DNA of 64,000 nt from Hydrolagus colliei (taxonomy: Eukaryota): contig CM068758.1 in assembly GCA_035084275.1 (NCBI GenBank), forward strand, positions 434,001-498,000. Reading direction: 5' to 3'. Under the pieces are notes generated by a model. It was not told where the DNA came from and ran no database searches. It saw only the letters and a program-made list of their open reading frames with translations. Position 1 is the stretch's first letter; each line of letters begins with the position of its first letter. Both the position numbers and the translations under genes were made by a program. Shown in pieces: positions 1 to 63,466 of the stretch.

Positions 1-3000
1 TTCACTCAGCTGATTCAAGTATTGAAGTACAAGCGGGTCAAACTTGATGAAAGTCAGGTAAGACTGTTTGCTGAAATTGTACGAGAGAGAGAAATGTTTC
101 ATTGCATTTGGGTTCACTTTCCTTTGTTTATTGGTGAGTTTGAGCCAGGAGTAATTGTTATAGACAGTCCTTTGGGAATTATTACTCTGTTGTGTCAACC
201 CCTCCACAAAAGTACTCCAGGTTCTGCTGGAATTGATGTCCTCGTTCAGGTAGCCTTTAACAATTGGTTTGCTCTCTCACGTTACAGCTCAGTTGCATAT
301 TCTTTCGACTAAAATCGGATGAAATAGAGGTCGAGGTAGACGAGGTCCCGGAGGATGTTCTGCTGTATTTCAAGTAAGTATTTGTCTTTTGTACATACAA
401 CCATAAAAGGATGAGAAGTGGAAACCAATTCTGCTTCGCTGGAGACTGGTCCTCCCGTCTACTGACAGAAGGAATACTGTTTTTAAAGAATAGGCAACAT
501 ATATTTTACCCCAAAGCCTCACACCATTTAAGTATTAAAGATATATTTATATCCACTTGTTTTAGCTCTGCAGAATTCAAAACAACTCCAGAGTGCAAGA
601 AATTCTTCAAGGCTGTTGGAAAATCGAACATTAATGCCTTACCAAAGGGATTAGGAAGATACCAATTGTTGCAGAACGCTAAAACCTGCTTGGTAAGAAC
701 GGATCTTATTTGGTCTTCTGCTATGCTTTTGATTACAGAATCTGTTGTTCAATACAAAGATACTTAAATGGATTGAATTTACTGTACAGACATCATGTGG
801 AAATGGTCCAGTGACCGTTGTAACTGTTGAATTATTCTCTCATAACCTTAGGGTATTCGTGAAGGAAGTCTGACAGAAGACAATGTAGAAACATTAGGTG
901 CTTTGGTCTGTGATCTCGATGGGGCCTCTATCAAGACGTCTCATGTTTCCATTTTGGAGCAATTAAAGCATTGCGTTTCATACACTGAAAGTCAAAAGTC
1001 AGTGATTGAAGCTGTACTCAACAACAAGACAACCAGATACGGGTATGTTTGGAGCTGATTTCCTTTAGATTTCTTGGAGAACCAATATCAGCAGGGTTTC
1101 GATCTAGAGCTTGGAATAGTTCCTCTCAATCCGCTGCCTGCTGCACTTGTCATTTGCACGCATCCTAAATGGGACTCCCATTGTATTTGCTGTTTGACAA
1201 TAACCTTATTTCATTGAGACGTTGAGAGCCTTGACCTGAGTGTTAGTGTATGGCCTGGAATACTGGACAAATGACAGGGATTATTTCCTTGTAGTTTCTC
1301 CAGGAGATGAGATTTAGATTGGAAACCTCTGATTGGAGATGTGTGAATTCTAGTGAGAAACTGCGCTCAAAATACTTATTGGTGAACTTTTTGTTTGAAT
1401 ACAGTCTACCTTCATCATGGACCTCATTGTCGTTGACTGACCTTGGAAACCTACCTTTGGCTTTCACCTTCACATGGAGAAGTGTAAACTTGGTGAGTTT
1501 CAACTGGTAAAGAATTCTTTCAGATGAAGTTAAGGGTAAAAGTAACTTTCTTTTCCAAAGTATTTTGCATGCTGCTTTACACATTGGAATATGTTGTGGT
1601 AAACAGTGTTACTCTGTAAACTGGATTTGTCTGTAGTTGACGCTTTATTGGGTTAATTAATCTCTTTGAGGTACTGACTATATTCTACCTTGCAGCCTGC
1701 CTTGAAATATGCCCTCCCAAGATTTCTCAAGAGATTGAAAACTACCAACTCACCGAATGCTGTCCTGGGATTCATCAATCAGTTGAAGTTGCACGCAAAC
1801 GTTACAGAAAGTATGTCATTTTCTTACAGGATTGGTTAAAGAAATAACATTGTGTGTGTGTGTGTATATATATATACGTGTGTGCAGTGTACAAATGGAT
1901 GTTATATGTAACAAACTGTTGTGTTTGCAGCCTGTACAAATCTCAAAGCGGTCGACATTGATGAGCTAACCCCTGTTAAATATGATGCTACCCAGTTACA
2001 CAACTGTTTGAGTGATCGCGTACTGAAGAATAACATATTTGTATTGGGAACTCTGTCCTTTGATACTGCTCAGCTGCACGTTCTGAAAAACAAACTTGTT
2101 AAGGTAAAAATCCGGCTTGTAACCTTCGTAATAATAAATAATTTGAGAACCAAAGTGAGTTTTATGTTTTCCTTTGTTTAAAACTGCTCTTGATGATCCG
2201 TGTGTAAAATTATCGAGCAAATGATGCAAAACGGAGTAAATTATTATTATTCCAGCGATACAGATTGTTTTATCCTTTCCCTTCCATCACAATCGTTTCA
2301 CAATTATGCAAGAATCCTTCACAGTTGATGTAAATTTGAGTTCTAATAACTGAGTAATGCTATGATGAAGACAAATCCACACTCTTACAATAAGTGCTCG
2401 CCTGTGTGCTGGACAATAAGACCACATGTTGGGATTGAATCTGATTGTTTGGATCTCTGTGATGCAGCTTTACCCCGGTGGGATCCCAGAAGCTGCAATC
2501 CTACTGCTGGGCAACATATCTACTGTGTTCAACGCATCCCAAATGAGCAGCTGGAATATAACTCAAGTTGACACACTCGAACTAGTGCTGAGGAATCCGT
2601 TAGAGCACTTCCAGGTACTTAAACTGAGAAATGACGAGATGAGTTTGGATGGAAAGGAAAAGCCCTTTGATGCTCTGATCAGCCATGTTTGAGGAGATTG
2701 TCTAAGGGATGGATGGTGCAGCACTGATTGGTGGGGTTGGGTGTGAGGGTGGGTGTGCGTTTGGGGTTGGGGGTGGAGGTGGAGGAGGTGAAACCCAATT
2801 GGGAATCAAAGAAAGAAAAGTTGAAATGGGGCAAATGTTTGCTATTTATCTGGTGTTTCTCTGTGCAATGATAGCTGATCCGTGTTCACCTCTTACAGGT
2901 CACGACCATCATTGCAAGATTCTTGGCCTTTGATGGAAAACTGAATGGATCTGCATTGAAAGCTGTCGGTGGTGCAAACCTGTGCCTTCTGAATGAAAAC

Positions 3001-3956
3001 CAACTGAGGACAATTTCCTCCCTGGAGTAAGTGATGAAATCTTTCTGATCCACAATCAGGCAAGCAATCAGGAACTGGAGCCATGGTTGCTGTTGATGCT
3101 GTTCTTGGTGTTTGGTATTTTGGTGTATTTGGGGTGGAATGTGCAGCCAATGGAAATATTTTCCCTTTTCTCCCACAGAGATGCAGGAGCTCTAGATATT
3201 TCTTTGTGCAGTCAGTCAAAGAAGAACCTGCTTTACCAGAAAGCTGTTGTTGCTTTGAAGGCTCAGAATATTAACCCGATCCCCCAATTTCAACTGTTAA
3301 AGTCGTACATTAGTAAGTCTCGGAATATTTACCTTTCATTCTTGTCCACTTCATCCATTCGGCCTTAGTTGAGTTCACTGAGTCTTTGTCTGTAAAACAA
3401 GAAACTATTTCAATAGTTATATTAAACATTTTTTTCCTACTTTATAAACAATAATAACTTGCCTTTTTGTCAAGCCATGACTTAGGATATAGCGTATGGC
3501 GGAGCTGAAAGCGGAGGTGGTTCATATACTGTGTTAAGCTGATGGCTCTGATTTTTCCCTTCAGGTGGAGCGAGACTGGTTGATCTGCAAACTCTGGCAA
3601 ACCACACAGTCCATATGGATTTTGCAACCTTCAAGACACTGAATCCTGAAGAAGTGACGGTTGGTACATGGACAATATGTTGGCATCACTGTGGTTGGGG
3701 GGGGGGCATTTCTTTAGCTGCTTCCCTTTGTCCTTCTGTTGGTTCCCTTTGGCGACTCTATGAATGACAGAGATTTGTTAAATGTTTCTCTTTTAGAATC
3801 TGACAGCTGAGAACCTGATTGACTTACTTGGAAGTAACCTGCCTGCACTGATAACTGGATTCAATGAAACTGTTGTGATAGTTTGGGTGAATTCACACTT
3901 TGTATCTGAAGTCAGGAAAGTTGGGCTTACGGGAGGAATTCCAGATCCTCCTCTAG
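1..3956 (+). CDS. Mesothelin-like domain 1 (first exon truncated by the window)
   Basis: Exons <1-57, 288-373, 566-692, 852-1042, 1405-1492, 1696-1810, 1931-2103, 2468-2614, 2899-3026, 3179-3312, 3565-3659, 3797-3956. For example, 852-1042 encodes [43 protein letters not shown], resembling mesothelin GVRGSLLSEADVRALGGLACDLPG..YG. Confidence 0.9.
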
Positions 3957-6900
3957 GTATGTTCCTCGTCAACGGCAAATAAATCTGCACATCAATTGCG
4001 GCTTTTGAAACACTGCTCTGAGGAGGATATCCCCCTCTGATAATGTTTGCACTATTTCTGTTAGATTTGCTTTGGATTCTGTTGTGAGTGTTTCCAATAG
4101 TCATTAAATTCAGATGATTTTCTAATAAGTACATGACACTATTTTTGACAACAGATATATTTTATTAAGGATCAGATAAATGTAGTGCTCTATAGTTTTA
4201 TGTATCTTAATACTGTACTTTTCTGTTTGACTTTTCCAACAGAAACTGTTTTATGTGAAGCCAGAAATAGGTAAGTTTCTTCTGTTTCCCGCAGTGCCGT
4301 TGTCCTCACACTCAGTCCAAAGTCACAAAGACTTGGAGAAGTCTCTCTCAACAATATGGCTAGATTGGTGATTAGGCAGTGAAGCACATGGACATTACAG
4401 AATCCTGCCTCTGTTATCAGTCACAAAACCCACCTGTTTAACCGGTATCCTCTGTTTCCTTACAGTTCAGCGGTGAATGATTTCCTGATGACCCTCAACA
4501 GGACCCAACTCTGCAATGTTGCCATTATAGACTACGCATGTGCTCGGGTAAGCTGTGTTCCGCTCTAGAATTCCACACAACAGTGTCTTCCTTCACGCGG
4601 TTCATCCACAGGGAACAATGTTGTAGTCCTTCCCAACTTTCTTGGTTCCCTATACAAATGTAGTCAAATTGTTGTATCATCTCCGCCTGTCGAAATAATA
4701 CCTCTGATCGATTGTTTTCAGATAACTTAACAGTTTCCATTATTTGTCAACCGATTCCTTGCAGATTGAACTGCTGGCAAATCTATCCAGTTATGACGTG
4801 ACTGCTCTGTTTGACTGCTACACTCGCTCAAAGGCTTTGAGGGTCGCAGATGAAAAACCGCTGACTCTGTTTATTCAAAAGCTTGACAGAACCACACTTA
4901 ACCAGGCGTTGGACATGTTTAATAAAAAGGTAAGCCCTTATTGATTCCATACTGTAGGGGTACTACTGTAAACTATTAAACGCCTCCTTACTGATTCACA
5001 TTAAACTTATTGGTGTGTTTCAGACTTTAAATATGTCTTCAATTGGTCTGGAAAGCAAGACAACGTTCTTTAACGCCTTGTGGGAGAATGTGAAGCTCAA
5101 CGTGACCAGCCCTGCTCTCCTGGCCAAATGGTTTCAGCAAAGATTCAGACCATTCATTGCAGGCATTCCTCAATCAGTCCTGACTGACCTTCTGGTGAGG
5201 AATGTCACATGTGATGGATACCAAGCAGTGTAAGTCTATTGTTTTCTCTTACAATCACCTGGTGCTGGGAATTGCAGAACAATCCTGGGTATAAACAGTG
5301 ATGGAAAAGAAGGAAACATGGAACAATAAACTGACTTGTGCTGTCAATTTGTCTTCACTTAGTGTGAAAGGCCTGAGTGATGGATTTGGAGAGATGCCAC
5401 TGCCAACGAGACACACCATACTGCAAGTCTGGATCCTTAGATACCTGAACAGCACAGGTAACCTGGATCCAATCAGTATCTGTAAATCAATCATTTCTTT
5501 CACATGTCGGCAAACGCCGAGTTTGTAAACGCACAATAGATAACCTTCTTTGCCATTCATCTCCAGGTGCTGGCTGTATCAGCAACACCAATGGCTCTCG
5601 AGACTGGCTGGTGAAGAATTGGGGAACGTTCAGCAAACTGGCTGATATAAAGCATCTGTCGGACTTGAATTCCAATTTCAGCGCAGTAAGTGACTGACAC
5701 ATTTTGTTTTTTTTTGAGATGATAAGCAGCAGGAGATGCTTTGTGTTCTGAAGACATCAGTACCAACAACAACGACAAAATTACATTGATAGAGTGCCTT
5801 TCATGTCGGGAGGACGTGCCAAGGCGCTGAGATCAAAATGATGACATGAATTAAATGTTGCTTTCATTAATATTATCAAACATACCCCAAATATCTTGCT
5901 AAACATCAAGTATTGTATTTGTTTCACCGAGTAATCTCTGTCATCATTTGTGGTTACGTCAAAAAATACTTTTTCACACGGAGTCATCTTTTCTGACAGG
6001 TTGAAGCAGGGGGCTTGCTGACTGTATCACAACTTGGAGAATTTGTGGGGAGAAATGGTACCTTGAGAAATGTTTATGACGTACACAAGCTTTTCACCAT
6101 CATCACAAATGTTACCGTGACTGAATTCCTGGACAGCTTTGCCTCGGCTGCCTACAGGGTAGGAGAACTTTGTGTGTTGTTTTTAATATAACCTGTATCC
6201 GTCAAGCACACATTTGGAGTTTAGTATGTGAGCACTGAGAGACAATGGCTCTGCCCTTTTCCATGCTGTGTTTATAGTTGGTTGATGTGCTCTCTGTCTC
6301 CTGGCATTGAAGCAGTTGATTTATTCCTAAATGTTTACAGAACCACGTGAAGCTGTCCCCTAACGTCACAACAGCTTTCCTGAGGGAGGTTCTGAACCGC
6401 ACTCAGTCGATCCTTTCAAACGCAGACTATAATGAGCTCTCCATCTGGTTCAACAATAGACTGGCATTCCTCCTGCCGGGACTCACCGAACAGTTGGTGC
6501 CTTTGGTCCTGGTCACTCAGAGCTGCAAAGGATCCCAATTCATGTAAGTTTGATGCACTTTGTTTATACTCAGTGGATTGGAGTCCCAAAGTGAATTTCA
6601 TATTAAGCGTTTGTAAATTTAGTGGTAGCTTTCTGTTTCATAAATTATGTTGTACGTTGGTGACATAACCCTCTAATGCCTTGAATTTGACCTTTTATAG
6701 TGTATCTGTGCTGAGCTCCATCAAGCCACCGTTGTATTCTGATATTCAAGAAGCCATTTATGCAAAGATACTACACTTTAATAAAGGTAACAACACAGAT
6801 TTCATCCATTAGAACCTCGCAATGCAATTTAACCCAACGCAGTTCCCACCATTTGAAGTACTAAATGTTGCTGTTTGTTGGGTATTGTCAATAAGCAGGA

Positions 6901-9900
6901 ATGATGCTGTGGGCAACATTACATTGGTCATCGTTTAACCTAATCTCATTTTTGTGGCTATTTGCTTCAGCGCCTCGGGACGTCCTCCCAACATGAAAGC
7001 TGCTAATCCAGCTCAATAGAAACAACAACAACAACAACTTTGATCCACGCCGGACGGCGTCTCAGAGCGTTATTGAGTAAGACATCATTGAATAAGATGG
7101 GAGCTTGAACTGAACGTTTTTTCCACTTTCTTTCCAGAATTCCCCCTTCGGTGCTATGAAAACAACAATTTTGTTGTTTATCTGAACAACACCTTCCGAA
7201 ATTTCTCTAAACATTTGAGTTTGACGGATTTGGTCTCATTGATACCGAAGAACAGAGCAGCTCAGGTAAGAACACCAACAACAAAATGACACTTGTATAG
7301 ACGGCGCCTTTCCCGTCAGCAGGACATCCCAAGGCGCTGGACAGTCACTGTGTCAGTCCCGAGCTGGGGACAGGGTGGGGAGGGAAACGGGGGTATTAGG
7401 AGTTGCCGGTGGGACCATATTTAAGTTCAATCATTTTTTTGTCTGTTTTTCTTCCAGGTTTTGAATGCGACTGAACCCACAGATGTGGCTGATTTGCTGA
7501 GCAGACCTGAATTCATCGATGACAACAGCAATCTGACTCTGTTGTTACTGAGCTACCAATCCATCCAGAAACTAGGAATATTTGTGGACAGATTCAACCA
7601 AAACAGTCACAATGTAAGTGGCAGATGGTTTAGAACAGAACGCAGCATCTCTTCTGGGTCAGTGGCTTTAGGCCGACGTTAATAATGAGAGGTCGAAATG
7701 TTCTATTGTTCCACACGGTTGACAAACTCAGTCAATCAGGAATGTTGTAGTTGGAATGGGATTTTCTGTTCTGTGTGATTAAGAGAAGTTAAATATTAAT
7801 GTTATTCTACGTTTACAGAGTGACCTGAGAGACACCACCCTGGCTGCCATCATGGAGGGTCTGTGGCCACTGTTTGCCAGGAGCTTGTCTGAACTGAGTG
7901 ACGCCCAAGCCAAGGTGTGGCTTGATGCCAGGCTGGAACCGTATCTGCCTTTCATCAGCCAAGACCTGCTGGCTTCTCAAGACACCCTGAGAGTGAAGTG
8001 CCAACCCTACAGAACAATGTAAATACCGTGCGGGCTTTGTGTGTGGGTGGGTGCCTCTTCCACCGATAGCCAGGCTTCTCTCTCTCTCTCTCTCTCCCTT
8101 TTGCAGTGTAACGTCCGGCTTCATTTTAATTCTCTCATTCCTGCTCCCTGCGTTAGGCCGACAAACCGTCAACTCTCTCTCCGCTCAAACCCCCCCCCCC
8201 CCCGCCCCCACCGCCCTCCCCATTTATGTGGACATGTAAAACGAGTTTGGGTCAACTGCTCTTGTCAAATAATATTACCTTCTTATCTACCGTTTGGTTG
8301 TATTTAATTATTGAATGCTAAAATCTTGCAATTGTTATTTAGTGTGAAAACATTGAGTGCTGGATACAATTCTTTCGAACCAGCCAAACAGAAGGAAATC
8401 TACAATGGCATCAAAACGTACCTCCAAGAAGGTAAACGTTATTGTTATTTTGGTTAAAGTGATCGTAGTTGAGATGACAATTTGACTGTATCCATGTGTA
8501 AGGAAATTAATTTAGTGCAGCTCTGGTTGCTGGTACTTGTAAAGCTAAACCTAAAGCCAGTAAGAGATTTTGGCTGGTGCTGGTGGCGGTGAGGAAGAAA
8601 CTAGGAATCAGAATAATTTTTTAATTTGACTTTTAGATGAAAACATTAAAGACAGAGTCAAAGTGTTTGTGAAGTATTAAACACACGTTCAACATTAATT
8701 AGTAAAGTTGATTCTCAAATGAATTGAAGCCTTTGTGTAATCACACTTTTCATTCCTTTGTACAGCAGGTCCTAAACCCAAATGCTACAACGCCAGTGAC
8801 GCAGCTCTGAACTCTACTGCTTGGTTTGTTAACTACCTCGGACTATACCTGAGCCAAGTGACAGAGGCTGATCTTCTGTCTTTCTCTGATAACAAAGCAA
8901 AGGTAATTGTGAAGATAAAGTCAGCAGAAAACTTTTCTAAGTGTTTTATGCAGAAGAATAAGTTTTCAATGGCTCAATTCTCAATGCAATGCTTGACAAT
9001 TCTGCTGTTAATCAGATTATTAGCTGTTGTTGTTGGCTGTGTCAAGGAATGTATGTGTAGATCATTATATGGGTCATTCAGTTCTGGGTTGTATTTCAAT
9101 CCACCTCAACTTAATGCGATGGAAGTCACCAAATGAGATCAAAATTGTCTCTGTGGGTTGCCAACCATTTTTGAATTCCCCTTTTTCTTATTAGCCAATA
9201 TAAAGGTAACTGCTGTGGCCTGGCCAATATTGCCCCCGATTCCAAAATTCACAAAAAAAACAAAACCCTTTACATCGATTTGACAATTAACATCGCTGAT
9301 TATGAGAAGCTGCTACAAGAAATTGGCTTCCACATTTGCCCGCACACCATCCCATATTGAATATCAGACTATTTCACGAAGTGAATCATCACCGCATCAC
9401 ACCTATTGATCACTGTTCTTGGTTGAGTAAACGTTGCTAATTTCATTTCAATGTTTGTGTTTCCAGCTTCAGGAATTCGCAGCTGATCCTGACAATCTGG
9501 CATTGCTGGGAAACGTGACGTTGCCAATTGAAGTTGCGAAATTCTGCATTGCATTGGTGCTTGAAGGGAATCCGAATGTTAATATAATAAGGTATGGCAA
9601 TATATTTCCACCCAAAGATATGAAATCCAAGTTTCTGGTCGAAATCACCTGTCGATCATCGTTCAGGAGGTAGATATTCACAAGTAGAAATTGACTTAAG
9701 TTTGCCAATAAGTAGACAATGATGCCAAATGATTGGACGTTCTTAGTTTTTGATCAGTGTTACTCAAGTCACAAGGAGACACTCTAGAGAGCCATTTTGG
9801 GATGACCTTGTGGAGAGTCTCATTGGGGATCACTTAGTATCAGGGAGACCTGTTGGTCTGTCACTGACGCAGATTGCAAATACTGTTTTCCAGCCTGCCC

Positions 9901-51900: not shown

Positions 51901-54900
51901 AGAAAGTGTCCCACATTTTAAACTCAAATGTTGATAAATCTTTTAAAATTAAATGAGTAAATCTACTTGCTATTGTCATATTGAGTATCAGTTTGGAAGC
52001 TTGTTGATCCCGCTGTAAATAATAGGACCTAAAACTAAGCAACCTGTTTGTTTATGGTGAACAAATAATATTAGATTTCCACACATAAGATCATATATAA
52101 AAAAAAGGCTGTACTTTTGAAACTGTCCAATGGCTTTGACTTGTTTCATTTTACAAATGTCAAGAGGTTTTTGTGTTGAATGTTTAGGGACAAGTACGAA
52201 CACAGTCCCTTCATGATCTTTAGAGAAATATAATATATATATATCTTTTAATACAATTGAATGCTGTTGGTGTAACTAATGCTTTCAATGTTTCATCCTG
52301 TCAGTGTGAAAGGACTCGATGATGGATTCAGAGAAATGCCACTGACAACAAGACAGACTTTAGTGCAAATATTGATTATTGGTTACCTCAACAGCACAGG
52401 TACAACAATTAAATTACATTTATAAAGCGCCTTTCACATTGGGAGGATGCTGGTAAACTTGAAAGGCAATTGAAAAATGCATCAAAGACATCTTCATCTA
52501 AAAAATTGTAATAGGATCCCTCAACCTAATTAGAATGGGAACTTTTCTTTTATTTGTAAATGTACTTGGAATGCATTGCCTGAAAAGGTGGTGGAGCCTT
52601 ATTCGATAACAGCTTTTAAAAGAGAATTAGATCTTTATTTAGGGAGAACAGGTCTGTTAGGTTATGGGGAGAGAGCTGGTCAGTGGGATTGAGTTGCTCT
52701 TTTCAAAGAGCCAGCATAGACTAGATGGGCTGAATGGCTTCCTTTTGTGCCGTAAAATTCTATGATTCTATGATACTTTCACTGGTAGTATGATCCTAAC
52801 ATGGGGAAAAATATATATTTATTGACTGGCCAGATAATCACTGATTTCCAATAACAACAACAGTTTTGTTGAGCAGAAGGAAGATAAGTCAGACCACCTA
52901 GCCAGTTCTGTCACTAGCTAGTAACCAGACTTGTGAACAGTTGAAGTTGTATGACCTCTTAACTAGTGGCTATCCTTAATTGCCACAATGCTCAGATCCC
53001 AAATACTCGATGGCCTTGGAACACATTTGTGAAAAAATAATGCTCAACCTACTTTTTAACTTTATCTGGTCAAACTGAGCTGTCAACTCAGGTCTAACTA
53101 AGTTAATAATAATCAATTGATTTATAAGAAGCTGGGATTATTGAAGTACGTTTGCTGGTTAGTAAAGAGGTTAAGTGTCATTACACATTTGCTAAATATT
53201 CATGAGAACATAAGAATTAGGAGCAGACGTAGGCCATTCAGCACCTCAAGCCTGCCCCCTCCATTCAATAAGATCATGGCTGATCTTCTAATCTAATTCC
53301 ACGCGCCCCTGCCTTATCCCATATCCTTTAGTCTCTTTATCCATAAGAAATCTATCAATCTCAGTCTTGAATATGAGCATCTACAGCCTTTTGGGGTAGA
53401 GAATTCCATAAATTCATGACGATCCATTGGCTTACTGGCAAAGGGCGAGTAATTGAGTTTCTTTCCTGTTGGACTCCAGGTACTGGTTGTGTCAACAACA
53501 CCAACGGATCCAGAGACTGGCTGGTGACCAACTGGGGAAGCTTCTATAATCTGGCTCAGATAAAGGATCTAACTGACCTGAACTCCAATTTCAATGCAGT
53601 AAGTTTTGTGCTTTTGAGAGATTGAATGAGGTTTTTTTGTGATTGGAGAAATTGGTATCTCTTGTCTGTGTTACTGATTCCTTCAACGCAACAAAAGAAC
53701 CTTGCTTGACCTTTGGCAACTTTTGAAATATCTTTAGTTTGAAGTCCTGGATCTGCTGAACACACGGCATTTCTCCGAGCTGACTGTGAACTCAATCAAC
53801 GCGGACAATATTGTTAACATCAACCAAATCCTCAATGAACTCGCAAAGAGAAGCTTTGGTGAACTGGATTCCTACATGGTCAATTTTGTCAGCGATGCAA
53901 AGAACGTAAGTTGTCTAATGCTTTAATATTGAGAGCATCAAACCTTGTTTGCCGTGGTCAAGCCTTGACTAGTTGCTAAAGGGCCATGGGTTAGATGGAA
54001 ATGTCAGATTTTTTTCATTAAAATTAACAATCATGACTTTCTGAAATAGTTAAATCTGCTCAACAGTCCTGCTTGTTCTGATGAATAGATTAAAATTGAA
54101 GCTACAGTAATAAATTTCTTTATGAAACAGAATGAGATAGACCACTAATATAACTGCTGCAAAACAAAAATGCTCCATATATATATATATATATATATAT
54201 ATTAAATGTCAGCCTGGCACAGTTGGTGGAACTTTTGAGTTTACCGATCACACAGTTACTAGACCTTACGCTCTACACTAAAATCCTGTGAAGTGGATTG
54301 TGGTGTTTTGATGGTGTGATAAAGAGGCTACTTCAAACGCAGGGATTCTTCAATATTACGCAGTACAAATCATCACCTCAACGCTTATTTTTATTTTTAA
54401 TTTAGAAATGTTTTTGAATATTAAAACTTTTTACTGTCGCGTTTTCGTTTGATTTCAGGTGGGAATAACCGACATTACAAACACAACTATAAGGTATGCA
54501 ATGCTGAGTAGCATTGTCCAGAAACTGCAGCCTCGGTTTACAGCATTTACAACCACACAGTATGCTGACTGGTTCCAAGGGAAATTACAGCTGTTACTAC
54601 CCAGTGTGACACCCAGCGAACTTGGCACCATCCCCACAGACACAACATGTCAATCTTACCAAGCTGTGTGAGTATAAACTGTGTGGATTTATGATTTATC
54701 GGAACATTTCAGGAAGGAAGCTCAGTTTCAGTCGCGGTTGCGGTTTAGTCTTGGGAACCAGTGATCTGGATTAGGGTTCGAATCATGGTAGGTGCACTTT
54801 AGCAGGTTAAAGTGATTTAACAGGTTGTGAATAGGTATAGCTAGCTAGCTCCGCAGTAATTCAAGAGACACTGCTTGCTGTCCGCCTGTTTTATGAGTGA

Positions 54901-57900
54901 GATTTTGTGATATCTTTAATCTTGTGAGTCAAAGCTAGTTTGCTGTGAAAACCTAGTAGAATGAGTGAGTTTGCCTTTACAAATATAACAATCTCACTCG
55001 TACATCCCCCTGAAATAGAGATGTTTTTTCAACAGTAATTCCCATTATCAAGACGTAATCACAAAACAAATCATGTATAGCTCAGCACGGCTGACACTGA
55101 TAGAAACAAAGCAAGATTCACTCCCTGCGATGGAGGGGAACATTGCTAGCACATAAAAGACATTTCCCCCCCTCTGTTTTACTGTCAAATGTTGTGGATT
55201 ATAAATAGGCAAATCTACAAAGCAAATGGTATTCCTAAACCTTTGTATTTGTGGTTATATTGCAAATATTGGGCTATTAGAGTTATTCTGCAATCAGATA
55301 ATATTTTTCATATATGAACAACATTAATATAATGTTACGTATTTTTACTGTTTATTTGCATTCTTAATGTTGATAAATGAATGAATGCAGCCTCACTGCT
55401 ATTATTCCTAGAAATGTTATCAATTATTATTTTGTTTTTAAACCTTTGCAGGATTAAAGGTTTAGACAATGTCTCTTCAAAGTTATCAGTGACGCAAATT
55501 GGTCATGTCTACACCTTTGTTTCAAATTATTTATCAGGACAACTGAACACATCAGGTAATGTACAAACAAGTTGAAACACAAAAGCAATAATGCATTAAC
55601 CTTGCTTTACAATGTTTTTTGATTCAGGGACAGAAAACGTCATCGGTTGTAACTGTTAGGATTGATGTGCTGTGGGGAAACATGACAAAGCTTTTTAACA
55701 ACAACAACAAACAACAAAATTAATAATAATTATTTGAAAGTTCACTGATAATACACAATCGCTACACTTTAAAATAAAATAGTTTCTGATGTTTTGTTAG
55801 CGTGATACGCTGCCTCTACGCCCCGAGGCTTGGGAACTCCCTTCCTCACTCCCTTTGCCTCGCGCCCTCTCTTCCCAGTTTCAGGTCATGGCTAAAGACC
55901 TTTCTCTTCGACCGCGCCTTTGGTCACCTTTCTCCCCCTGCCCCTGGCTCGGTCCTGGGATCTGTTGCTGTGAAGCGCTCTGAGACGCTGTCCGGTGTGG
56001 AGGGCGCTGTATAAATCAAAGTTGTTGTTGTTGTTGTGATAAACAGCTATATAAAAATGCAAGTATTAACAGAGCAAAGATAATTAAAGTACAAACACTT
56101 CCTCTGCTGTAGTCCTGATTAATGATTGTATTATAAATCCTCCGCTGGTAGGTTCGGCATGTGTGGCAAACACTAACGGTGATGGGGATTGGTTACAGAA
56201 GAACTTTGCCGCGTTCCGGTCACAAGCCAAATACAGCGAGTTCATACACCTAAAGAGCAACTTTATTGGGGTAAGTTATTCATGTTCTATGAGGGTATGA
56301 GAGTGAGAAAGCACAAGAGGGCACAATTTAGGGTGGGGTGAAAGGGCAACGTCAAGACGGACAACCACAATGTATTTATTTCCCCCAAAGGGAATCCATA
56401 ACAGGAATGTTTAACAAGCAGTGTGATGCTGCGATGGCAAGGGTATTCTGGAAGCATAAGATCAGATAAGGTTTAACTCAGTTACTCCTATTCACCCTCA
56501 CGATGAGGTGGTAAACTAAGGTTATGTCTTGCTGTTCAGGTAAATCTTAAAGATTACATGACCTCTTTTTTTAAAAAAAAACAGGTGAGTTTCTCAAGGC
56601 AACAATATTCCAAATAAAGTTGGCCATTCACTCCATGGCTGTCTGTCTGCAAATTGGTTCCCACTTTTACCAACAAATGCTCAACTGTTACCCATCACAA
56701 CAAGATTAGGAAGTGATTTGAACATCGGGCATTAGATCAAATGCAATTATTATCAGCATCTTTCATTTTCCTGCTTGTTTAAAACCTTAAACAAGTTTAA
56801 ACAACTATTCTTAACCCAACACAAAAAACACCCAATCATTTAAAATGTACTCCATTCATAAAGCGATGAGTGTATTTTGCAGGGTTTCACTGCAGTGCTC
56901 CTGGGGGAAATACAGTCTTTTTGGAACATTCTAAAATGGAATAAAACGAATGAGGCATTTTTCACGATAATAAATTTTTATTCGGGATGTGTGTTTTTTA
57001 TGTTACAGGTTGAGGTTGCGGGTTTGCTGACTGTAAGGCAGTTGGCAGACTTGACTGCCAGTAACGGAACATTGAAGAGTTCAGTTGATGTCCGCAAGGT
57101 TATGAGCAGGGTTACGGCTGAAAACATCATTCAGTTTATGGACATTTTCAGCTCTGGTGCAAAGCAGGTAGAAAATTTGAATGCTTGCTCATTCAAGGAT
57201 TTGCGATGGTTAATTCCAGTGTGAAAGTAAACGTTTCTCTACTCAATAAAATGTTCACAATTGCTAAATGTATGTAGTTCACCATCACAAATGATATATT
57301 CTGTGAGCCCTGCATCAACGGATATTAGGAGTGTGATATTAGGAGTTCTGCTGCTAAAAACACAATTACAAAATGCGTTTGACACTTTTTTCTGCTGCTA
57401 AAAACACAATTACAAAATACGTTTGACACTTTTAAAACACTTTTAGTGTTTGATTTGCTAAATCCTCATGTCCTACAATACCACGATCACAAATCTGTCC
57501 ATCTGTGAATTATTTAAAAGAGATGGTGATAAGAAAGGATTTTGAAGAATGAGGTGGAAAGGCGGTCAGATAGAATTAAAGAACAGTGTGAGAAATTCCT
57601 TTTGGATATGGTTCGTCCAAAACACAGTATTTTGGGGCAATACAGTATTGTCAAATAGATTCCTAGAAGGTCATTTGTGATCTTTACCACACTCTGGTCA
57701 AGCTGTAAACTGTACCTGACCAGAATGTTGGATTCATTTGAGAAACATTATGCTATTATGGGGTGGGTGGGCAATGTTACAGGGTGGGTATTGCAGAAGG
57801 AAGCTGTTCTCCATTCGAACTTCTCCTGATCTGATGAATTTGGGGACCGAGAAAGAGATCGTACTGTATAGCAGAAACGCTTAGGTCACAAAAAAAAATT

Positions 57901-60900
57901 ATATGGGGGGATATGAATCGACTTACGTATGTTTTAATTTGATCAAACTTTAAACAAATACATTTTTTACTCATGTGTGTTTTTTTTAAACTTTACCAGA
58001 ACAACATATTTTTGGCCCCCAATGTGAAATCCGCTTTGCTGACCGAAGCGCTGAATCGCAGCCTGCCGATCATCCAGCGTTCCAGTGACGCAGAACTTCG
58101 GATCTGGTTTGGTACAAGGCTTGAAATGCTGATACCAGAACTCAACGGAAACTTGACTGAACAAATCCTGGCCAACGCGAGTTGCAATGGTTCACAGATC
58201 ATGTGAGTCTGAACGGTTGTTTTCACCTTCAAGAACATTCACGATCTTGCCCCCACCTATCTCTCCGACCTACTGTCTCCCTATCAGCCCGCCCGTCCCC
58301 TCCGTTCAGTGGGTTCTGGCCTTCTCCATGTCCCCCGCCCGAACTGCCTCACCATCGGTGGATGGGCTTTCAGCCTCTCTGCCCCCACACTGTGAAACTC
58401 CATCCTGCAATCTCTTCACCTCGCTTCCTCCCTTTCCTCCTTCAAAGCGGTCTCAAGACCTTCCTCTTCGACCATGCCTTCTGCTGCCCTCCTAACTCTT
58501 CCACCCATTCCTTCTCTCATTCCCCCTGCCCCTTGCCCGACCCTTCCCCCCACCCCCACCGCTCGGGTCCTGACCTAACACAATGTTCAGCACCTTGAAC
58601 ATTGTGTTTTTTATTAATGAGATAAATAATTTTCAGCTCTGCAAAGATAAAAGCTTTTTATTTCTTCTTCTTTTAACTTCGATCAAAACCTTCTAAAATG
58701 TACAATGGTGTATATATATAGCAGATCTCGAGTTTTCATTTCGTGATGACATAAACAAAAGTAAAATGTGAAATATAATCACTGAAAGGTGTAATGTGAC
58801 TCCTGTTTGATTTAGAATACAAAGCTTGAATGCCCAGTTCTTTAAGTTTGATACTGCCCAGCAGGAGGAGCTGTATAATAGCATCAAAGATTATCTTCTG
58901 AAAGGTAAAGCCAAAATCAATCTGTGTTTTTGTCCATTATCTGTGATTAGCTTTGAGATTTGAATGACGCAGATTTAAGATTGCATTCTCCTTTTAGTAC
59001 TAAGTACTTAAAGTACTTTTAATCTGAAGCAGTAACTGTCCAGCGCCTTGGGACGTCCTCCTGACGTGAAAGGCACTATATAAATGTAATTTTGTTGTTG
59101 TTGTTATAAGTGACTTCACATGGATTTTTCAGGTTAAGTATTAAAAATGGACGAGTGAGTGTCTGAACATGGTGTTGCGATTAACCAAAGCATTTTTTTT
59201 ACTTGTATTGAAGGTTTTTGTGTTGAACTCTATTCTGATATACATATATATGCTTTGTATTTCATTCATTCCTTTAGCTCCCCAAACAAGATGCTTTAAC
59301 TCAGCTAACCCAAAGCTCAATTCCCCTGCATGGTTTGTGAATTATTTGGGGAAATTTATGAACCACACAAGCAAGAATGACCTAAATTTGCTTGTTAAAG
59401 ATACTGATGTAAGTATAATACTACCAAGTAATGCCCGGACTGTTTTTCTTGCTGTCCTTGAACAGGCAAAGCTACGTTGAAGCCTTATGAAGTGGTGTTT
59501 ATTGTTCCTTTGTGTAACTTGCTGTTGTATTGATGGTGAACATTTATTGTGTGCAGCTTCAGATATTTGCGAATGATCCAACCAACCTGGAGCTGGTGAG
59601 CAACCTTGCTCTTTCAAGGGACATCCAAGAGTTTTACGCTAACGCTCTCTTCAGAAACACAAACGTCAATTTCACAAGGTACATTTTTACACTGCTTTTC
59701 GATAAGAGTTGAAAAGTGATAGTTGTGTGATAAGTGTGAATGTACAGAATCAATTCATCATCGACGTTAAAATATTAACTTGAAAATGAAAGCACTTTGA
59801 GACATCCTCCAAATGTGAAAGCCGCTCATATAAATGTAAATTTTCATTATATTAATTAAATAAAAAGGACAATATGTTGTGTATTCTTTGTAGGATTTTT
59901 TTGCAATAAATCTTGTCTTATGCTGACTTCTTCTATGTGTATAAACGTGGAACACTCTAACGGATATGTTTTTTATGCAGAGTTCCTGATAGTATGATTT
60001 GTTTTGTTGCTGGTACCCCATCATTTGAGTCCTTAAATACCCAGCAAACCTTAAAGATAATTAACAGAATCAACCAAGTCTGCCTCACTCCTGCCACAAA
60101 TGAAACTGCACCCGAAGAGCCGACAGATGAACAATTACAGGTAACATAAGGAGGCGATTAAGGATAAGTGTTGGATTATTCTGTCATTATTCTACCAGTG
60201 CTGAGGACTTGAACTGACCTCCCACTACTGCCACTGTTCTTTTATGTAAAGATGATTTATTATCCTGTTACTGTCTACCTGATAAAAGTTCCCATTTGAT
60301 ATACAAATGATTAACTCACACTTTAATCTTTCCAAACCTGTTCTCTCGCCCTCCACACTGCTCAGTGTCCGCGCGAAGCCCCTAGATGGATTATTTTATG
60401 CGAGACTATGTTCTCTGTCAGTCTATAAGATGGGCTATAACTTGTAACATTATATAGTCTTTTATCTGACCTCGGTTGTTTTGTTTAATGAGAAGTCTAA
60501 CTTTGTCTCAACAAGAAAAATATCTGTTAATGCTGGGAGTTTAATGTTCCCCTGCTCTCGCTATGGCATGCAAAGAATTCAACGTTTATGAATAAGTCTT
60601 TTTAAACCGAAAACAGTGAACAACTAATGAGTGTTTGTGGCTCTGTATTAACTGAAACTCTTCATGGTGCAATCATTTGAAGACTATTTTCTTTATTTTT
60701 GTAAGTCAGCTCAAATTGTATAATATGCTAACAGAAAAACAATTGATGTTATTTTAATGATTATGATTCCTTCTAAATAAAAAAATTATCCCCAAACTGT
60801 GTTTTCCTGTAGCTTGCAATTTCGGCTGTGACTAACATTACGATCAACTCACCTGAGACGCTTGTTAATTTGGGGCAATTGGCGGTTGGACTGTCAACCA

Positions 60901-63466
60901 CACAGATTGGCAGCACAGATAAGAACGTTGTTTTAAAATCCCTGGATAGTCTGGCCAAAGTCAGCGGCTGGAAACTTGGCCAGTCCAGAGTAATTATTCG
61001 TAAGTTGTTGGCTGCCAACTTTCAGGTAAGGATGACATAAATTCAATTCAAACTTTTTTTTCACATCCATAATAAGTAACAGGACACTATCTCGACAGTA
61101 TCACTGTAGCTCACAGTGCTCCAAACTTAGTCGTGGATTGAAATGAACAATTTCTTATAGGTTTTTTTTGAGAGATTATTATTAGGTGTGTGTGTGGAGT
61201 AAGGAAACTTACCAGGTCTCACGCTTGTAAGGCAAGTGAGTGCTGTACAACAACAACAAAATTGCACTTATATAGCGCCTTTCACATCGGAAGGACGTCG
61301 CAAAGCGCTGAACAATCAGGTTGGGACCAGAGTGGGGGTGGGGGAGGGTTGGGGTAGAGGGAAGGAGAGAGGGGAGAGTTAGTGGGGGAGCCGAAGGCGC
61401 GGTCGAACCTCTGAGCTTTAGGGAGCTCCACTCAATATGCCTGTTTAGGATGAGGTTAGGGTGACATCTAACTTTTGTTTTTACTTTACATTCACCAGGT
61501 TAACAGTGCTGGGAATATTTTGAAAATGGGAAGTCTGGTGTCTGGCCTGTCCATGAAAACAGTTCAATCGTTGGATGTCAGTGTGATTGTCACCGCCTTT
61601 AAAAACACAAACTTTGTCAGGCATATAAAACTCGCCCGAGCTCCTGTGCAAAGATCAGTCGTCAAAAAGGCAAGTCAACTAATTTACGTGTGTGTGTGTG
61701 TGTATGTGTATGTAATTAAAAAAAATAACTCTTGCATTTGAAACGAGAGGCCTATATTGGATCAAATCATCTCAACATGTTGTGCAGATTGGGTTACCGC
61801 AGTAAATTGATGGAATTCTCTCTACCCATAAAAGCCTAAAGGGAGGGGGAAGGTGGAGTTAGATTAGCAGATCAGCCATGATCTCATTGAATAGCGGGGC
61901 AGGCCCGAAGGGCTGAATGGCCTACCCCTGCTCCTAATTCCTATCTTCTTATGTAAGTAGTAAGTAGAGACGGTTCTCAAAAGAGAGGTAAATAAGAATA
62001 AGAAAGCCCTACAGCCCATTTGATATTGACTGAATATCCACTAAGGTGTTTTTCCAATGTCAAATACCTTATAAAGCCCACTTTGCTGCCTCCTGTGATC
62101 GATCGATCCGCGGTTTCGCTTTGCTGCCACCTGCAAATTGACCACCTTAAACTGAGACCGCAAATCCAGGTCATAGATTTATACCCAGAACAGGGAGGGG
62201 AACCAATACAGATACCCGAATATCATATCACCCAATCCCCATTTTGATATCGTTCCCATCATGACTATACTCTGATTCCTTCCCTTTGGCTTGAAACCTC
62301 AACTGACAGCTTCTCCTGAACGCTTATAAAATGAAAGATATGAGCTTGTATTTTGTGGGTTTTTAGTGAATCTTTTTACAATCTCTGCATTCTACGTGGC
62401 TCCAGTCACTTGGCTTATTTGGAGAATTCAGTTACAGTATTGTAAAAGCTGTATTTTAGATGTGTTTAATATAGTAATGTATGTAACACATCTTTCAGAT
62501 TTTCGGATCTTCGAGTGACCGAGTGACAGACCTCCAACTGGTTCCAGACTCTCTTGCAGACAAGATACCTCTGCGTTTTCTGACCTCCAAAAATATTAAG
62601 TTAAATCACGTGAACAAGAAAAAATGGAAACGCAATCAGGTAAGTGATGATTTGGATTATTTATTCGATGACCAGCATACTGGGTTTTTATAAAGTTTTC
62701 TTTGAGGTTTTGTACTGACTTTGGGTGAGTGTTTTTTATTCGAGGAAGAAAAGGAACATTTGTCTACTTATATACACTGCTTAAATGAAGCTTTAACACA
62801 TTAACGTTCTTCGTAGCTATAACGTAGCATTCCTAGTTTGAACGATGCCTATCTTATTTGTCAGTTAAGTGAATATTATAATAACAATAATAATTATTAA
62901 ATGAATAGCTATGATCCTCATAACATTAAATTGGTATAACTCCCTATCACTTTATCTAAGACTGTAAATGTTTTTTTTAAACCTTTTAGGCTGCTATGTT
63001 CTTCCCGAATTTTGCAAAGGATGCCACTATAGATTTTAATAGGTAAGTATTCATTTTCCAATCATTGTAATAATCCTTGCTTTTGACATAATAAGAAATT
63101 TGAGCTCTGCGACACCGTCCGGCGTGGAGTGAGGGCGCTATATACATCAATGTTGTTGTTGTTATAACCACTGTATTGCAGCTTTAAGGCATATATTTTC
63201 TCACAACAATTTGCATTTATTTAGCTCCCCTCAGCCGATGTGGGATAGCGCCCTGGAGCCCTTCCCTATGGCAGAGTTAGACAACGAGATCAATGTAAAG
63301 GCAATGTAAAGATTCCCAAAGCTAATGTTTTTTTATTGTACTCCTCAGTGTTTCAGGCTCTGTTCTACAAGGATTTACTTGTAACGGTGCAAAGACATTG
63401 AAAAACTCCCAATTCAAGATGTTTGTTAAGGCATTGAGGGGCAAGGCTACACTGGATTCCGATCAG
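1..63466 (+). CDS. Giant multi-domain mesothelin-like protein gene (internal part only; 131 predicted exons, about 6,058 aa in frame; runs off both window ends)
   Basis: Exons were found by eye at polypyrimidine-AG and GT(R)AG boundaries. Phases match at every junction, and exon lengths are conserved between repeat units. Translations match the human mesothelin motif order: [13 protein letters not shown] / LSCIFFRL / [14 protein letters not shown] / [10 protein letters not shown] / YGLPSSWT / LYPGGIPE / WNITQVDTL / [23 protein letters not shown] / GLTGGIP. The exact orthologue (MSLN, MSLNL or lineage-specific) cannot be assigned from sequence alone. Confidence 0.85.
4243..11617 (+). CDS. Inter-domain region 1: Cys linker, three 4-exon modules and helical pre-mesothelin segment
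   Basis: Linker exons 4243-4270 and 4466-4547. Module A: 4765-4929, 5024-5229, 5363-5457, 5567-5685. Module B: 6000-6158, 6341-6543, 6701-6786, 7138-7265. Module C: 7458-7613, 7819-8018, 8343-8431, 8766-8902. Then 9467-9591, 9894-10059, 10314-10526, 10887-11057, 11244-11384, 11568-11617. All are phase-compatible and stop-free. Confidence 0.85.
10615..10685 (+). mobile_element. Isolated SINE tRNA-head remnant (second copy at about 22515-22585)
   Basis: gtggttagagcactcaccttccaagcgtgagacctgtgtttcgaatccaggcaggtcaaggcaa matches the heads of the full SINEs. Confidence 0.65.
11836..15855 (+). CDS. Mesothelin-like domain 2 (copy of domain 1)
   Basis: First exon 11836-11956 ([40 protein letters not shown]). 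The remaining exons are the domain 1 coordinates +11,899. Confidence 0.9.
16142..23517 (+). CDS. Inter-domain region 2 (copy of region 1)
   Basis: Region 1 exons +11,899 up to 19917, then +11,900 from 20243. One coding change seen: CCG>ACG (P>T) at 16757. Confidence 0.85.
23736..27755 (+). CDS. Mesothelin-like domain 3 (copy of domain 1)
   Basis: First exon 23736-23856. The remaining exons are the domain 1 coordinates +23,799. Confidence 0.9.
28042..38844 (+). CDS. Inter-domain region 3 (hybrid: homogenised linker and module A, then diverged modules B and C and pre-domain)
   Basis: Region 1 exons +23,799 up to 29484. Diverged paralogous exons follow: 30241-30399, 31268-31470, 31857-31942, 32263-32387, 33121-33276, 33834-34033, 34326-34414, 35107-35243, 35719-35843, 36438-36600, 36988-37200, 38028-38198, 38366-38503, 38795-38844. 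Their lengths equal those of the region 1 exons or are one codon shorter. Confidence 0.85.
29797..30106 (+). mobile_element. tRNA-derived SINE (Deu-domain type, L2-like 3' tail)
   Basis: A/B-box head (tagctcagttg...gggttcaattcc), core ctgctgtgcgctattgggtgccacgtttcgcccaca, tail gtgaaaagcgcta..tcaaatgcaa(att)n. Boundaries approximate. Confidence 0.8.
30938..31238 (+). mobile_element. tRNA(Ala)-derived SINE
   Basis: Head gagctcagtggttagagcactcgccttgcaagtgagagacctgggttcgattcc (TGC anticodon loop, B box), followed by the same core and tail as the other copies. Confidence 0.85.
33497..33810 (+). mobile_element. tRNA-derived SINE
   Basis: tgtagctcagtggttagagcac...gctgtgtgcaattggctgc...gtgaaaaagccgctatctcaaatgcaaggattatt. 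Confidence 0.8.
35276..35598 (+). mobile_element. tRNA-derived SINE
   Basis: gctcctgtagctcagtggttagag...ttgcaagtgtgagacctgtgttcgaatcc...gtgaaaagcgctatatcaaatgcaaggattattatt. Confidence 0.85.
38922..39582. mobile_element. Non-autonomous Tc1/mariner-superfamily (pogo/Tc2-like) DNA transposon, MITE
   Basis: Perfect 27-bp TIRs: ccgtatatctccgcgtataaggcgcac at 38922, reverse complement ending at 39582. TA flanks both sides (38920-21, 39583-84). The interior is a GA-rich minisatellite plus a GC-rich block, with no transposase. Confidence 0.9.
39720..40030 (+). mobile_element. L2-type LINE 3' fragment
   Basis: ttcaagatcctggtcctcacattcaaagccctccacaagctcgccccc ([16 protein letters not shown], typical of the L2 ORF2 C-terminus) ... 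gtgaaaggcgctgtacaagtgtaattttgttgttg tail. Confidence 0.75.
40036..48742 (+). CDS. Mesothelin-like domain 4 (diverged; furin-type RSRR site; mucin-like tail in last exon)
   Basis: Exons 40036-40156, 40612-40697, 41161-41290, 41438-41628, 41927-42014, 42721-42844, 43648-43826, 44754-44900, 46299-46426, 46630-46775, 47122-47216, 47686-48742. 47122-47216 encodes [32 protein letters not shown], resembling mesothelin GGAPTEDLKALSQQNVSMDLATFMKLRTDAV. Confidence 0.9.
42318..42707 (+). mobile_element. tRNA-derived SINE (degenerate head, internal insertion)
   Basis: gggttcaattcc B box, gggcaagtttccttactcc, gggacactgctgtgtgcaattggctgccacgtttc, tail caaggattatt. Confidence 0.7.
43064..43189 (+). mobile_element. 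SINE 3' fragment
   Basis: caattggctgcctcgtttcgcccacaaat...gtgaaaagcgctgtatcaaatgcaaggattattatt. Confidence 0.7.
44109..44340 (+). mobile_element. 5'-truncated SINE
   Basis: tccttactccacac...gctgtgtgtaattggctgccgcatttcg...agcgctttgagac...atatcaaatccaagg. Confidence 0.7.
45612..45788. other. Assembly gap (177 N) within an intron of domain 4
   Basis: Run of n. The flanking exons 44754-44900 and 46299-46426 are consecutive by paralogy with 2468-2614 and 2899-3026, so no exon needs to lie in the gap. Confidence 0.99.
47836..48699 (+). repeat. Coding minisatellite (21/18-bp units, CCAGCAACAGCAACAACAACA) encoding a mucin-like (PATATTT)n tract
   Basis: 288 consecutive NCA codons (one TCA, then ACA/GCA/CCA) in frame with the preceding GLSGGIPD sequence of exon 47686-48742. 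Confidence 0.95.
49012..63042 (+). CDS. Inter-domain region 4 (diverged, with rearranged modules)
   Basis: Exons 49012-49031, 49463-49484, 49596-49623, 50087-50168; 50749-50913, 51630-51841, 52305-52399, 53480-53598; 53738-53905, 54459-54667, 55452-55555, 56152-56270; 57009-57167, 58000-58202, 58816-58904, 59278-59408; 59557-59678, 59981-60140, 60813-61025, 61499-61669, 62499-62639, 62990-63042. Frame is continuous. Confidence 0.8.
50320..50552 (+). mobile_element. 5'-truncated SINE
   Basis: agtttccttatacac...gctgtgtgcaattggctgcttcgtttc...gtgaaaagcgctatctcaatgcaaggattatt. Confidence 0.75.
51078..51413 (+). mobile_element. tRNA-derived SINE
   Basis: gagcttctgtagctcagtggttagagcactcgtcttacaagcgtgagacctg...tcaaatgcagggattatt. 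Confidence 0.85.
52565..52772 (+). mobile_element. CR1-type LINE 3' end
   Basis: tggaatgcattgcctgaaaaggtggtggag...ttttaaaagagaattagat...gatgggctgaatggcttcctt..(attctatg)2, a CR1-like terminal octamer repeat. Confidence 0.75.
53204..53415 (-). mobile_element. CR1-type LINE 3' end, antisense
   Basis: gaacataagaattaggagcagacgtaggccattcagc...cattcaataagatcatggctgatct...ggggtagagaattcca. Its reverse complement matches 61860-61951. Confidence 0.75.
54176..54202. repeat. (TA)n microsatellite
   Basis: Run of atatatat... Confidence 0.9.
55815..56036 (+). mobile_element. L2-type LINE 3' end
   Basis: tgggaactcccttcctcactccctt...ctaaagacctttctcttcgaccgcgccttt...gtggagggcgctgtataaatcaaag(ttg)n. Confidence 0.75.
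57347..57433. repeat. 44-bp intronic tandem duplication
   Basis: tctgctgctaaaaacacaattacaaaat(g/a)cgtttgacactttt occurs at 57347 and 57391. Confidence 0.9.
58225..58600 (+). mobile_element. L2-type LINE 3' fragment
   Basis: accttcaagaacattcacgatcttgcccccacctatctctccgacct...ctcaagaccttcctcttcgaccatgccttc. Confidence 0.7.
61120..61235 (-). mobile_element. SINE fragment, antisense
   Basis: gtcgtggattgaaatga...gtgtggagtaaggaaactt..caggtctcacgcttgtaaggcaagtg is the reverse complement of the SINE head and body seen elsewhere. Confidence 0.7.
61250..61410 (-). mobile_element. L2-type LINE 3' end, antisense
   Basis: (aac)n..ttgcacttatatagcgcctttcacatcggaaggacgtc..aaagcgct...ccgaaggcgcggtcgaa is the reverse complement of the L2 tail. 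Confidence 0.7.
61860..61951 (+). mobile_element. CR1-type LINE 3' end
   Basis: agatcagccatgatctcattgaatagcggggcaggcccgaagggctgaatggcctacccctgctcctaattcctatcttcttatg. Confidence 0.75.
63349..63466 (+). CDS. First exon of mesothelin-like domain 5
   Basis: ctcctcag|T GTT TCA GGC ... GAT CAG|gtgag encodes [39 protein letters not shown], paralogous to 11836-11956 and 40036-40156. Confidence 0.85.

Follow-up and report, generated by a model that had tools for sequence, protein, structure and literature searches.

A predicted giant mslna-type gene with seven mesothelin domains in the chimaera Hydrolagus colliei

Mammalian mesothelin (MSLN), in humans a small cancer marker of the cell surface, is the closest described system. 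The human precursor has 622 aa. It is reported to be cut by furin into a soluble MPF and a GPI-anchored mature part (PMC10035497; PMC2628672). Its disulfide pairs have been assigned to C302/C326 and C442/C468, and its MUC16-binding surface is centred on W321 (PMC10035497). Mesothelin is described as a major target of cancer therapy with an unclear normal function (PMC10035497), and one account gives knockout mice as having no phenotype (PMC2628672). The same source proposes that mesothelin-family proteins act as superhelical lectins by which glycoprotein matrices are tied to cells. It also describes otoancorin and stereocilin as GPI-anchored mesothelin relatives with a long helical N-terminal extension, which were proposed to bind the inner-ear gel (PMC2628672).

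The window analysed here is a stretch of 64,000 nucleotides from the 1.0-Gb genome of the chimaera Hydrolagus colliei (C25:434001-498000), and our analysis also took in 300 kb upstream, 100 kb downstream and all of the unplaced contig C295. We read the window as very likely the middle of a single mslna-type gene. The predicted product is a GPI-anchored, heavily N-glycosylated chain of ~11,500 residues with seven mesothelin domains, of which furin would likely cut the last two only, and an uncut ectodomain of ~9,500 residues would be shed. We assign this reading as a whole, shedding included, a probability of roughly 0.7. Compared to mammalian MSLN, a single-domain protein of ~620 aa, this amounts to seven domains, ~880 aa of additional repeats per unit and an ~18x longer chain. 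The closest protein relative, from Callorhinchus milii, reached 84% over one exon.

For the gene model, a 32-exon unit was read from positions 1-12000, candidate exons were scored against it, and gaps were judged by eye. Every exon border of the unit is AG-GT and its 4,281 nt (1,427 aa) are stop-free; the chance that 32 random segments of equal lengths are all stop-free is ~10^-26.5 under a null that disregards that the exon borders were chosen. Exon by exon, 131 exons comprising 18,168 nt within 1-63466 remain stop-free when joined. Extended into the flanks, the C25 model consists of 215 exons, 29,450 nt and 9,816 aa (1.08 MDa for this part alone) with 0 internal stops and one GC donor. Exon lengths and phases are nearly equal across all units, and the N stretch of the window sits within an intron, leaving the model untouched. 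The sequence-only reading had arrived at 4,284 nt for the unit and 18,174 nt for the window. The open frame and the divisibility by three stand, the unit is shortened by use of acceptor 8769 instead of 8766 (NAGNAG), and two copies of this NAGNAG fully explain the gap in the total.

The donors at 3956, 15855, 27755 and 48742 are GT, in phase 1 and behind the GL(T/S)GGIP motif, just as had been stated, and the postulated minimum of five chained mesothelin domains was borne out as well. Three complete domains lie in the window, preceded by the remainder of one that is cut by the window edge and followed by the beginning of a fifth; the gene runs past both window edges, and the assembly contains seven. 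Domain calls are based on a search of the genome with PF06060, which scored above cut-off on single exons, and on a profile built from the mesothelin domains, as defined by Pfam, of ten database homologues. Against the C25 model this profile gave seven full-length matches of 615-682 bits.

All features of the gene lie on the forward strand. A near-identical 11.9-kb tandem array occupies 1..29512, with ~2.5 units in the window and ~4.8 in C25, each of 32 exons and 1,427 aa. A unit is composed of a two-exon Cys cap, three four-exon repeats of ~200 aa, a six-exon arm and a 13-exon mesothelin domain of ~545 aa. The earlier description as a chain of whole-mesothelin repeats therefore had to be given up, since ~880 of the 1,427 aa per unit are non-mesothelin. 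N-glycosylation sequons number 34 per unit and 215 in the C25 chain.

Mesothelin domain 3 of 7 starts just upstream of the window and fills 1..3956; it is devoid of a furin site and its last exon ends in phase 1. Two linker exons encoding the Cys-rich cap follow at 4243..4547 (28 nt, phase 1-2; 82 nt, phase 2-0). This exon pair is also found near the gene start on C295, and the homologous junction is present in the C. milii fragment P0004, in sharks and in skate. Three ~200-aa repeats at 4765..8902 (exon phases 0-0, 0-2, 2-1 and 1-0) share conserved Trp and Cys residues and are predicted to form an all-helical solenoid. An arm of ~270 aa (9467..11384) leads into mesothelin domain 4 at 11568..15855, which comprises an MPF-like and a mature part and carries an N-glycosylation sequon in place of the furin site. 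Mesothelin domain 5 (23468..27755) is identical in protein sequence to domains 1-4.

The linker, repeats and arm of unit 6 extend over 28042..38503. The linker and first repeat lie within the array (to 29484), and the following part is diverged, with 52% identity to the array unit. Mesothelin domain 6 (38795..48742) shares 53% identity with domains 1-5, and its last exon, 47686-48742, is lengthened by an in-frame minisatellite at 47837..48701. This encodes a mucin-like tract of 302 aa with 157 Thr, 87 Ala and 48 Pro and is succeeded by two additional micro-exons. Hence, of the four junctions that had been taken as alike, the first three are, and the fourth at 48742 differs by the Thr/Ala/Pro tract and the micro-exons. 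Unit 7 (49012..62639) contains micro-exons of 20, 22 and 28 nt, the Cys cap, three repeats and the arm, with the GC donor after 61669. Mesothelin domain 7, which bears an RVSR site, starts at 62990..64000 and continues past the window. The GPI/stop exon that had been expected in the flanks was located 8 kb beyond the window. This last coding exon (C25:505973-506068) encodes a Ser-rich spacer, a hydrophobic, putatively GPI-type tail (hydropathy 2.67) and the stop, with an AATAAA ~0.4 kb beyond. Two short mesothelin genes lie ~220-240 kb upstream.

The full MPF plus mature domain of mammalian MSLN, its GG-x-P end and the GPI-type tail behind it are also present in the chimaera gene, and the homologues match the solved mesothelin chains 7ued and 8cxc in sequence. 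A counterpart of the human Cys pair C302/C326 exists in all seven domains, and the exon translations show another pair at the C442/C468 position. W321 is found in none of the seven domains, which have Thr or Asp there and retain the neighbouring Tyr. Hence, mucin binding cannot be transferred to the chimaera chain. Gel-forming mucins themselves are characterised by VWD and cystine-knot domains with dominant PTS tracts. Classification of the chain as such a mucin was rejected, as Pfam gave no VWD or cystine-knot family in 21 homologue entries and the chain has only one Thr-rich tract of 302 aa.

Otoancorin and stereocilin are similar in size to one chimaera unit and have one mesothelin-like region each, in contrast to seven in the chimaera chain. 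Atlas feature scores of 0.86-0.89 between the non-mesothelin part and the otoancorin and stereocilin clusters, and thereby any likeness of the arm to these proteins, serve as a lead only. Matches of PF21058 (Otoancorin_N) in the genome were confined to C22, and profile matches to the otoancorin/stereocilin-like loci on this contig were weak (E 0.025-0.45). No homology of the arm to otoancorin or stereocilin was obtained among shorter proteins, and the single-exon search revealed no paralogous locus. In the 21 homologue entries scanned, no Pfam family was assigned to the non-mesothelin part. The AlphaFold model of P0004 (42 rows) is all-helical with a pLDDT of 90.8. In a fold search its first 61 residues matched mesothelin (Z 9.3, rmsd 1.4), and the remainder gave weak matches to HEAT/ARM-like solenoids, the best being Enp1/bystin with Z 6.8, a level common for helical repeats, and rmsd 5.5 over 214 residues.

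Several lines of evidence argue for one gene and against a cluster, as the sequence-only reading had proposed. The 286-nt intron after 3956 is too short to accommodate a gene end plus a new start, and our scan for terminal exons found no phase-1 candidate in it. Where a gene does end, at the 3' end of the chain and after each of the two short mesothelin genes, the same scan retrieved a strong GPI exon (3/3). Behind 48742 it returned several weak hydrophobic candidates, all devoid of the Ser-rich spacer of real tails. The short introns flanking the internal junction yielded neither a signal-peptide exon nor a GPI exon, and a single GPI-type tail is present in the entire chain. In comparisons of the array unit with the diverged copies, dN/dS was 0.32 for the linker and first repeat, 0.33 for the repeats and arm, and 0.34 for the mesothelin domain, which suggests that the linker exons are under the same purifying selection as the mesothelin exons.

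Further support comes from skate. The Logan proteins P0024 and P0173 (3,067 aa, 20 residues apart), from contigs of 10,469 and 10,496 nt, span a signal peptide, a whole mesothelin domain and 852 aa past it, across the GGIP junction. They are 99% identical to both little-skate mslna (1-2218) and the separate RefSeq model LOC129706689 (2393-3066) and thus bridge what RefSeq splits. These contigs are best read as spliced RNA because their 9.2-kb frame is unbroken. They end before the second mesothelin domain, apparently in an intron, and so document the junction and not two domains per molecule.

Alternatively, each unit might be transcribed alone, or its transcripts might mostly be terminated by polyadenylation in the intron that follows the GGIP exon. 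One-domain secreted proteins would result, with the open chain as a by-product of duplication. Shortly after the internal donor 3956, an AATAAA at 3978 shares bases with the read-through stop, and another is located at 48778 behind 48742, so that truncated forms with short read-through peptides are possible. RefSeq also splits the locus in little skate, C. milii and Chiloscyllium, and its little-skate mslna model stops just after the GGIP motif. Nevertheless, in view of the junction introns, the single tail, the constrained linker and the junction-crossing skate contigs, we regard separate units as very unlikely and the single chain as the preferred reading.

The array begins 27.6 kb upstream of the window, at a scaffold gap of 200 N. 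This gap also cuts a fascin gene, whose last exon lies on the far side. Array copies are 99.84-99.97% identical; the five copies differ at few positions, mostly intronic, with an exonic share of 2/9 among the classed differences. Such similarity next to a gap would also fit an assembly artefact concealing a real gene with about three mesothelin domains. Contig depth speaks against this. In run X4 the array is covered at 239-255 vs 45-64 for the single-copy flank and in run X1, which may be the source sample, at 172-177 vs 37-42, a ratio of about 4-4.5x that does not convert into an exact copy number. Run X11 from a related species shows depths of 149-560 over the array vs 24-70 over the flank, with fixed differences from the window. 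These values would fit four to five real copies, amplification in the related species too, and homogenisation within species. Moreover, the shark and ray chains contain 4-6 domains, and their upstream copies are likewise near-identical. An artefact thus appears extremely improbable, and the array is treated here as real. None of the 13 sequencing runs listed was marked as RNA from this species, and run X13 covers introns and hence consists of DNA reads.

The 5' part of the gene is provided by C295, which joins the array at unit position 6321 through a 1,739-nt overlap with the C25 start (99.9%, inside a repeat). Its 38 exons (5,205 nt, ~1,735 residues) comprise an exon with Met and a hydrophobic stretch, a Cys cap and about seven further repeats, bringing the total predicted chain to ~11,500 residues, or about 11,550 aa if the overlap is direct. 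The first of these exons (C295:9875-9941), recognised by eye, is a candidate for the signal-peptide exon that had also been expected in the flanks, on a separate contig and with frameshifts downstream of it; the skate homologue starts similarly. Five exons in C295:10419-18734 are frameshifted or off-frame in length. Since, in the one stretch searched, no second copy of this 5' region was found in the assembly, a gene broken at its 5' end has to be considered, either as a recent pseudogene or with a start further downstream. From 20227 onward, though, the next 24 C295 exons (1,191 aa) are open and all 215 C25 exons intact, the frameshifts are grouped within one section of this small unplaced contig, and the skate orthologue is open over the corresponding region. 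On these grounds consensus errors would be the simpler reading of the frameshifts, and a broken gene is highly improbable. We therefore retain the intact chain.

At the boundary where mammalian MSLN has its furin site, domain 6 contains RSRR (42826..42837, between its MPF and mature parts), the most upstream predicted cut, and domain 7 contains RVSR, which conforms to the minimal R-x-x-R only. Domains 1-5 are without the site and have an N-glycosylation sequon at that position. In our cartilaginous-fish set R-x-x-R occurred in 0/14 upstream domains, five of which are the identical copies from the present gene, and in 9/10 of the last two domains. Three sharks fetched afterwards gave 0/10 and 6/6, so that the combined count is 15/16 for the last two domains vs 0/24 upstream, often as a polybasic run. 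Bony vertebrates break this rule, with no site in catfish and killifish and a variable pattern in medaka, characin and axolotl.

Judging from these motifs, a secreted and GPI-anchored precursor would be cut by furin in domain 6 and probably in domain 7, behind positions 7740 and 9490, respectively, of the C25 protein. A mature mesothelin of ~300 aa would be left on the membrane, as in mammals, and a middle piece of ~1,750 aa would include the Thr-rich tract. The released counterpart of mammalian MPF would be a megadalton glycoprotein of ~9,500 aa, in which five furin-resistant mesothelin domains are spaced by helical repeats.

The main rival to such shedding keeps the same giant gene with a chain that stays mostly membrane-bound, uncut or with its pieces held together, as a long tether of gel or mucus to the epithelium similar to otoancorin and stereocilin. 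The proposed gel binding of these GPI-anchored relatives (PMC2628672), the Atlas scores as a lead only, and the catfish and killifish multi-domain models without any furin consensus are in line with a tether. It is opposed by the retention of the furin consensus in the last two domains (15/16) and by direct homology tests against stereocilin-like loci, which were not significant. On balance we consider a tether unlikely and favour the shed ectodomain.

The homologue set consisted of 190 fetched proteins, 103 of which match the mesothelin profile. Two or more near-full domains were found in 18 of the 190, from 13 species, and three further sharks have 5-6; all of these are gene predictions. The mslna-type models of sharks, skates and rays share unit order, linker, 4-6 domains, a furin site in the last two only and, in most, a GPI-type end. 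Among them are Amblyraja XP_032896963.1 (7,628 aa), Stegostoma XP_059510198.1 (7,881 aa), Scyliorhinus XP_038675521.1 (7,331 aa) and Rhincodon XP_048465576.1 (4,700 aa). They are automatic predictions, mostly without an N-terminus, and very likely orthologues of the chimaera gene, which is longer with its seven domains and adds the Thr/Ala/Pro tract of 302 aa. As this architecture is already deposited in RefSeq/GenBank as unnamed models, it does not constitute a new gene family. No description of multi-domain mesothelins or of the furin pattern was found among the full-text literature matches listed, which mostly leave out subscription journals.

Teleost mslnb or long mesothelin-like models and axolotl XP_069503376.1 possess the same ~200-aa repeats ahead of the mesothelin domain. 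Two or three mesothelin domains are present in models of axolotl, medaka, characins, catfish and killifish, and many teleost-type models have one behind 10-31 repeat matches, with a furin pattern unlike that of the chimaera. In a quick tree search of domains (45 rows, midpoint root) the terminal domains of chimaera, sharks and rays formed one clade (SH-aLRT 100) and the non-terminal ones another. The bony-vertebrate domains grouped by species, which indicates separate amplifications or homogenisation.

The duplicating module would be the frame-preserving block from behind the N-terminal exons through the last mesothelin exon. Its last mesothelin exon ends in phase 1, its Cys-cap exon begins in that phase and each unit adds a whole number of codons, so that unequal crossing-over could add entire units. 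The split between terminal and upstream domains would be older than the divergence of chimaeras and sharks, with the upstream copies homogenised within species since. As a tentative view, which we hold with less than even confidence, jawed vertebrates may ancestrally have had a giant modular glycoprotein with mesothelin as its membrane-proximal end. In cartilaginous fish a poly-mesothelin may then have persisted for >400 million years with a division of labour, in which the distal domains resist furin and can be amplified and the two proximal ones are cleavable. It would release a multivalent scaffold of megadalton size into mucus or seminal fluid. Mammalian MPF and mesothelin would be the truncated remnant of this system.

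Expression data on relatives provide some hints to the biological context. The catshark homologue scyTo_0003439 (P0007, A0A401PMK1) was detected by mass spectrometry in sperm preparations and is given in the spermatozoa list with a fold change of -2, p 0.035 and FDR 0.214 (PMC11083954). Salmon mslna is reported to be up in louse-infested skin (PMC12339338), and an MSLNL-like salmon gene to be differentially expressed in gill (PMC7316992). Quail MSLNL is listed as present in seminal foam (PMC12853081), and PMC4587967 names MSLNL only. By family analogy and from these indirect data, the shed piece would most likely act on wet epithelial or luminal surfaces, such as skin, gill or reproductive ducts, as a multivalent coat or cross-linker. 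The role of the chain in a filament, mucus or gel suggested by the sequence-only reading is likewise putative.

The predicted extracellular protein would be very large, and annotation pipelines split it or leave it unnamed. Seven domains in the chimaera and membrane-near furin sites across chimaeras, sharks and rays offer a natural experiment on what MPF, the furin cut and shedding are for, and little skate, catshark, axolotl, medaka and killifish lend themselves to tests. The chimaera chain suggests that the original role of the mesothelin family was structural and multivalent.

The neighbours of the giant gene, a predicted chain of seven mesothelin domains, were identified by Pfam. Downstream (loci L013-L015 and L020) these were MARF1 and a myosin tail, and upstream (L021-L040 and L001) two myosin heavy chains, an importin-alpha-like Arm gene, and a HECT ligase as well as WD40, PROPPIN, and HlyIII/PAQR genes. 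This set appears similar to the human 16p13/7p22/7q22 block.

The scaffold gap at the start of the tandem array truncates a fascin gene, of which the last exon is left (G000:C25:405979-406149, minus strand, L008), and no further fascin exons were found near this position. The gap conceals more sequence than C295 alone, the unplaced contig carrying the presumed 5'-end of the giant gene. In this 5' part, five off-frame exons are clustered at G000:C295:10419-18734 (L042), which are probably consensus errors. The exon at G000:C295:32165-32323 (L044), which lies on the border of the homogenised array, looks like a chimera of two exons, its first half resembling the exon at window 30241 and its second half the exon at window 6000. 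Within another exon, window 28704 is T in the window versus G in contigs from four runs, representing either a private variant of that array copy or an assembly error.

Directly 3' of the splice donors following internal GGIP motifs, AATAAA hexamers were located at window 3978-3983, where the signal overlaps the read-through stop, and at window 48778-48783. Judged from these motifs, intronic polyadenylation resulting in secreted short forms is possible.

Two short mesothelin genes were recognized at about 190,900-196,300 and 204,800-211,900 of G000:C25 (L026-L028). Small 5' exons, one of which encodes RREKR, are followed by six mature-domain exons and an own GPI exon, and the MPF half, the N-terminal part of the mesothelin precursor, seems to be missing from both genes. 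Furthermore, Stereocilin (PF21058) exons mark two loci at 7.46-7.48 Mb and 16.50 Mb of G000:C22 (L046-L057), each a candidate for stereocilin, otoancorin or a paralogue.

The homologues P0019, P0018, P0009, and P0023 comprise 4,900-7,100 aa and largely consist of the ~200-aa helical repeat or its sub-repeats. P0019 contains 31 matches to this repeat, followed by a single mesothelin domain. The ~200-aa repeat is an unnamed extracellular repeat of vertebrates without a Pfam model.
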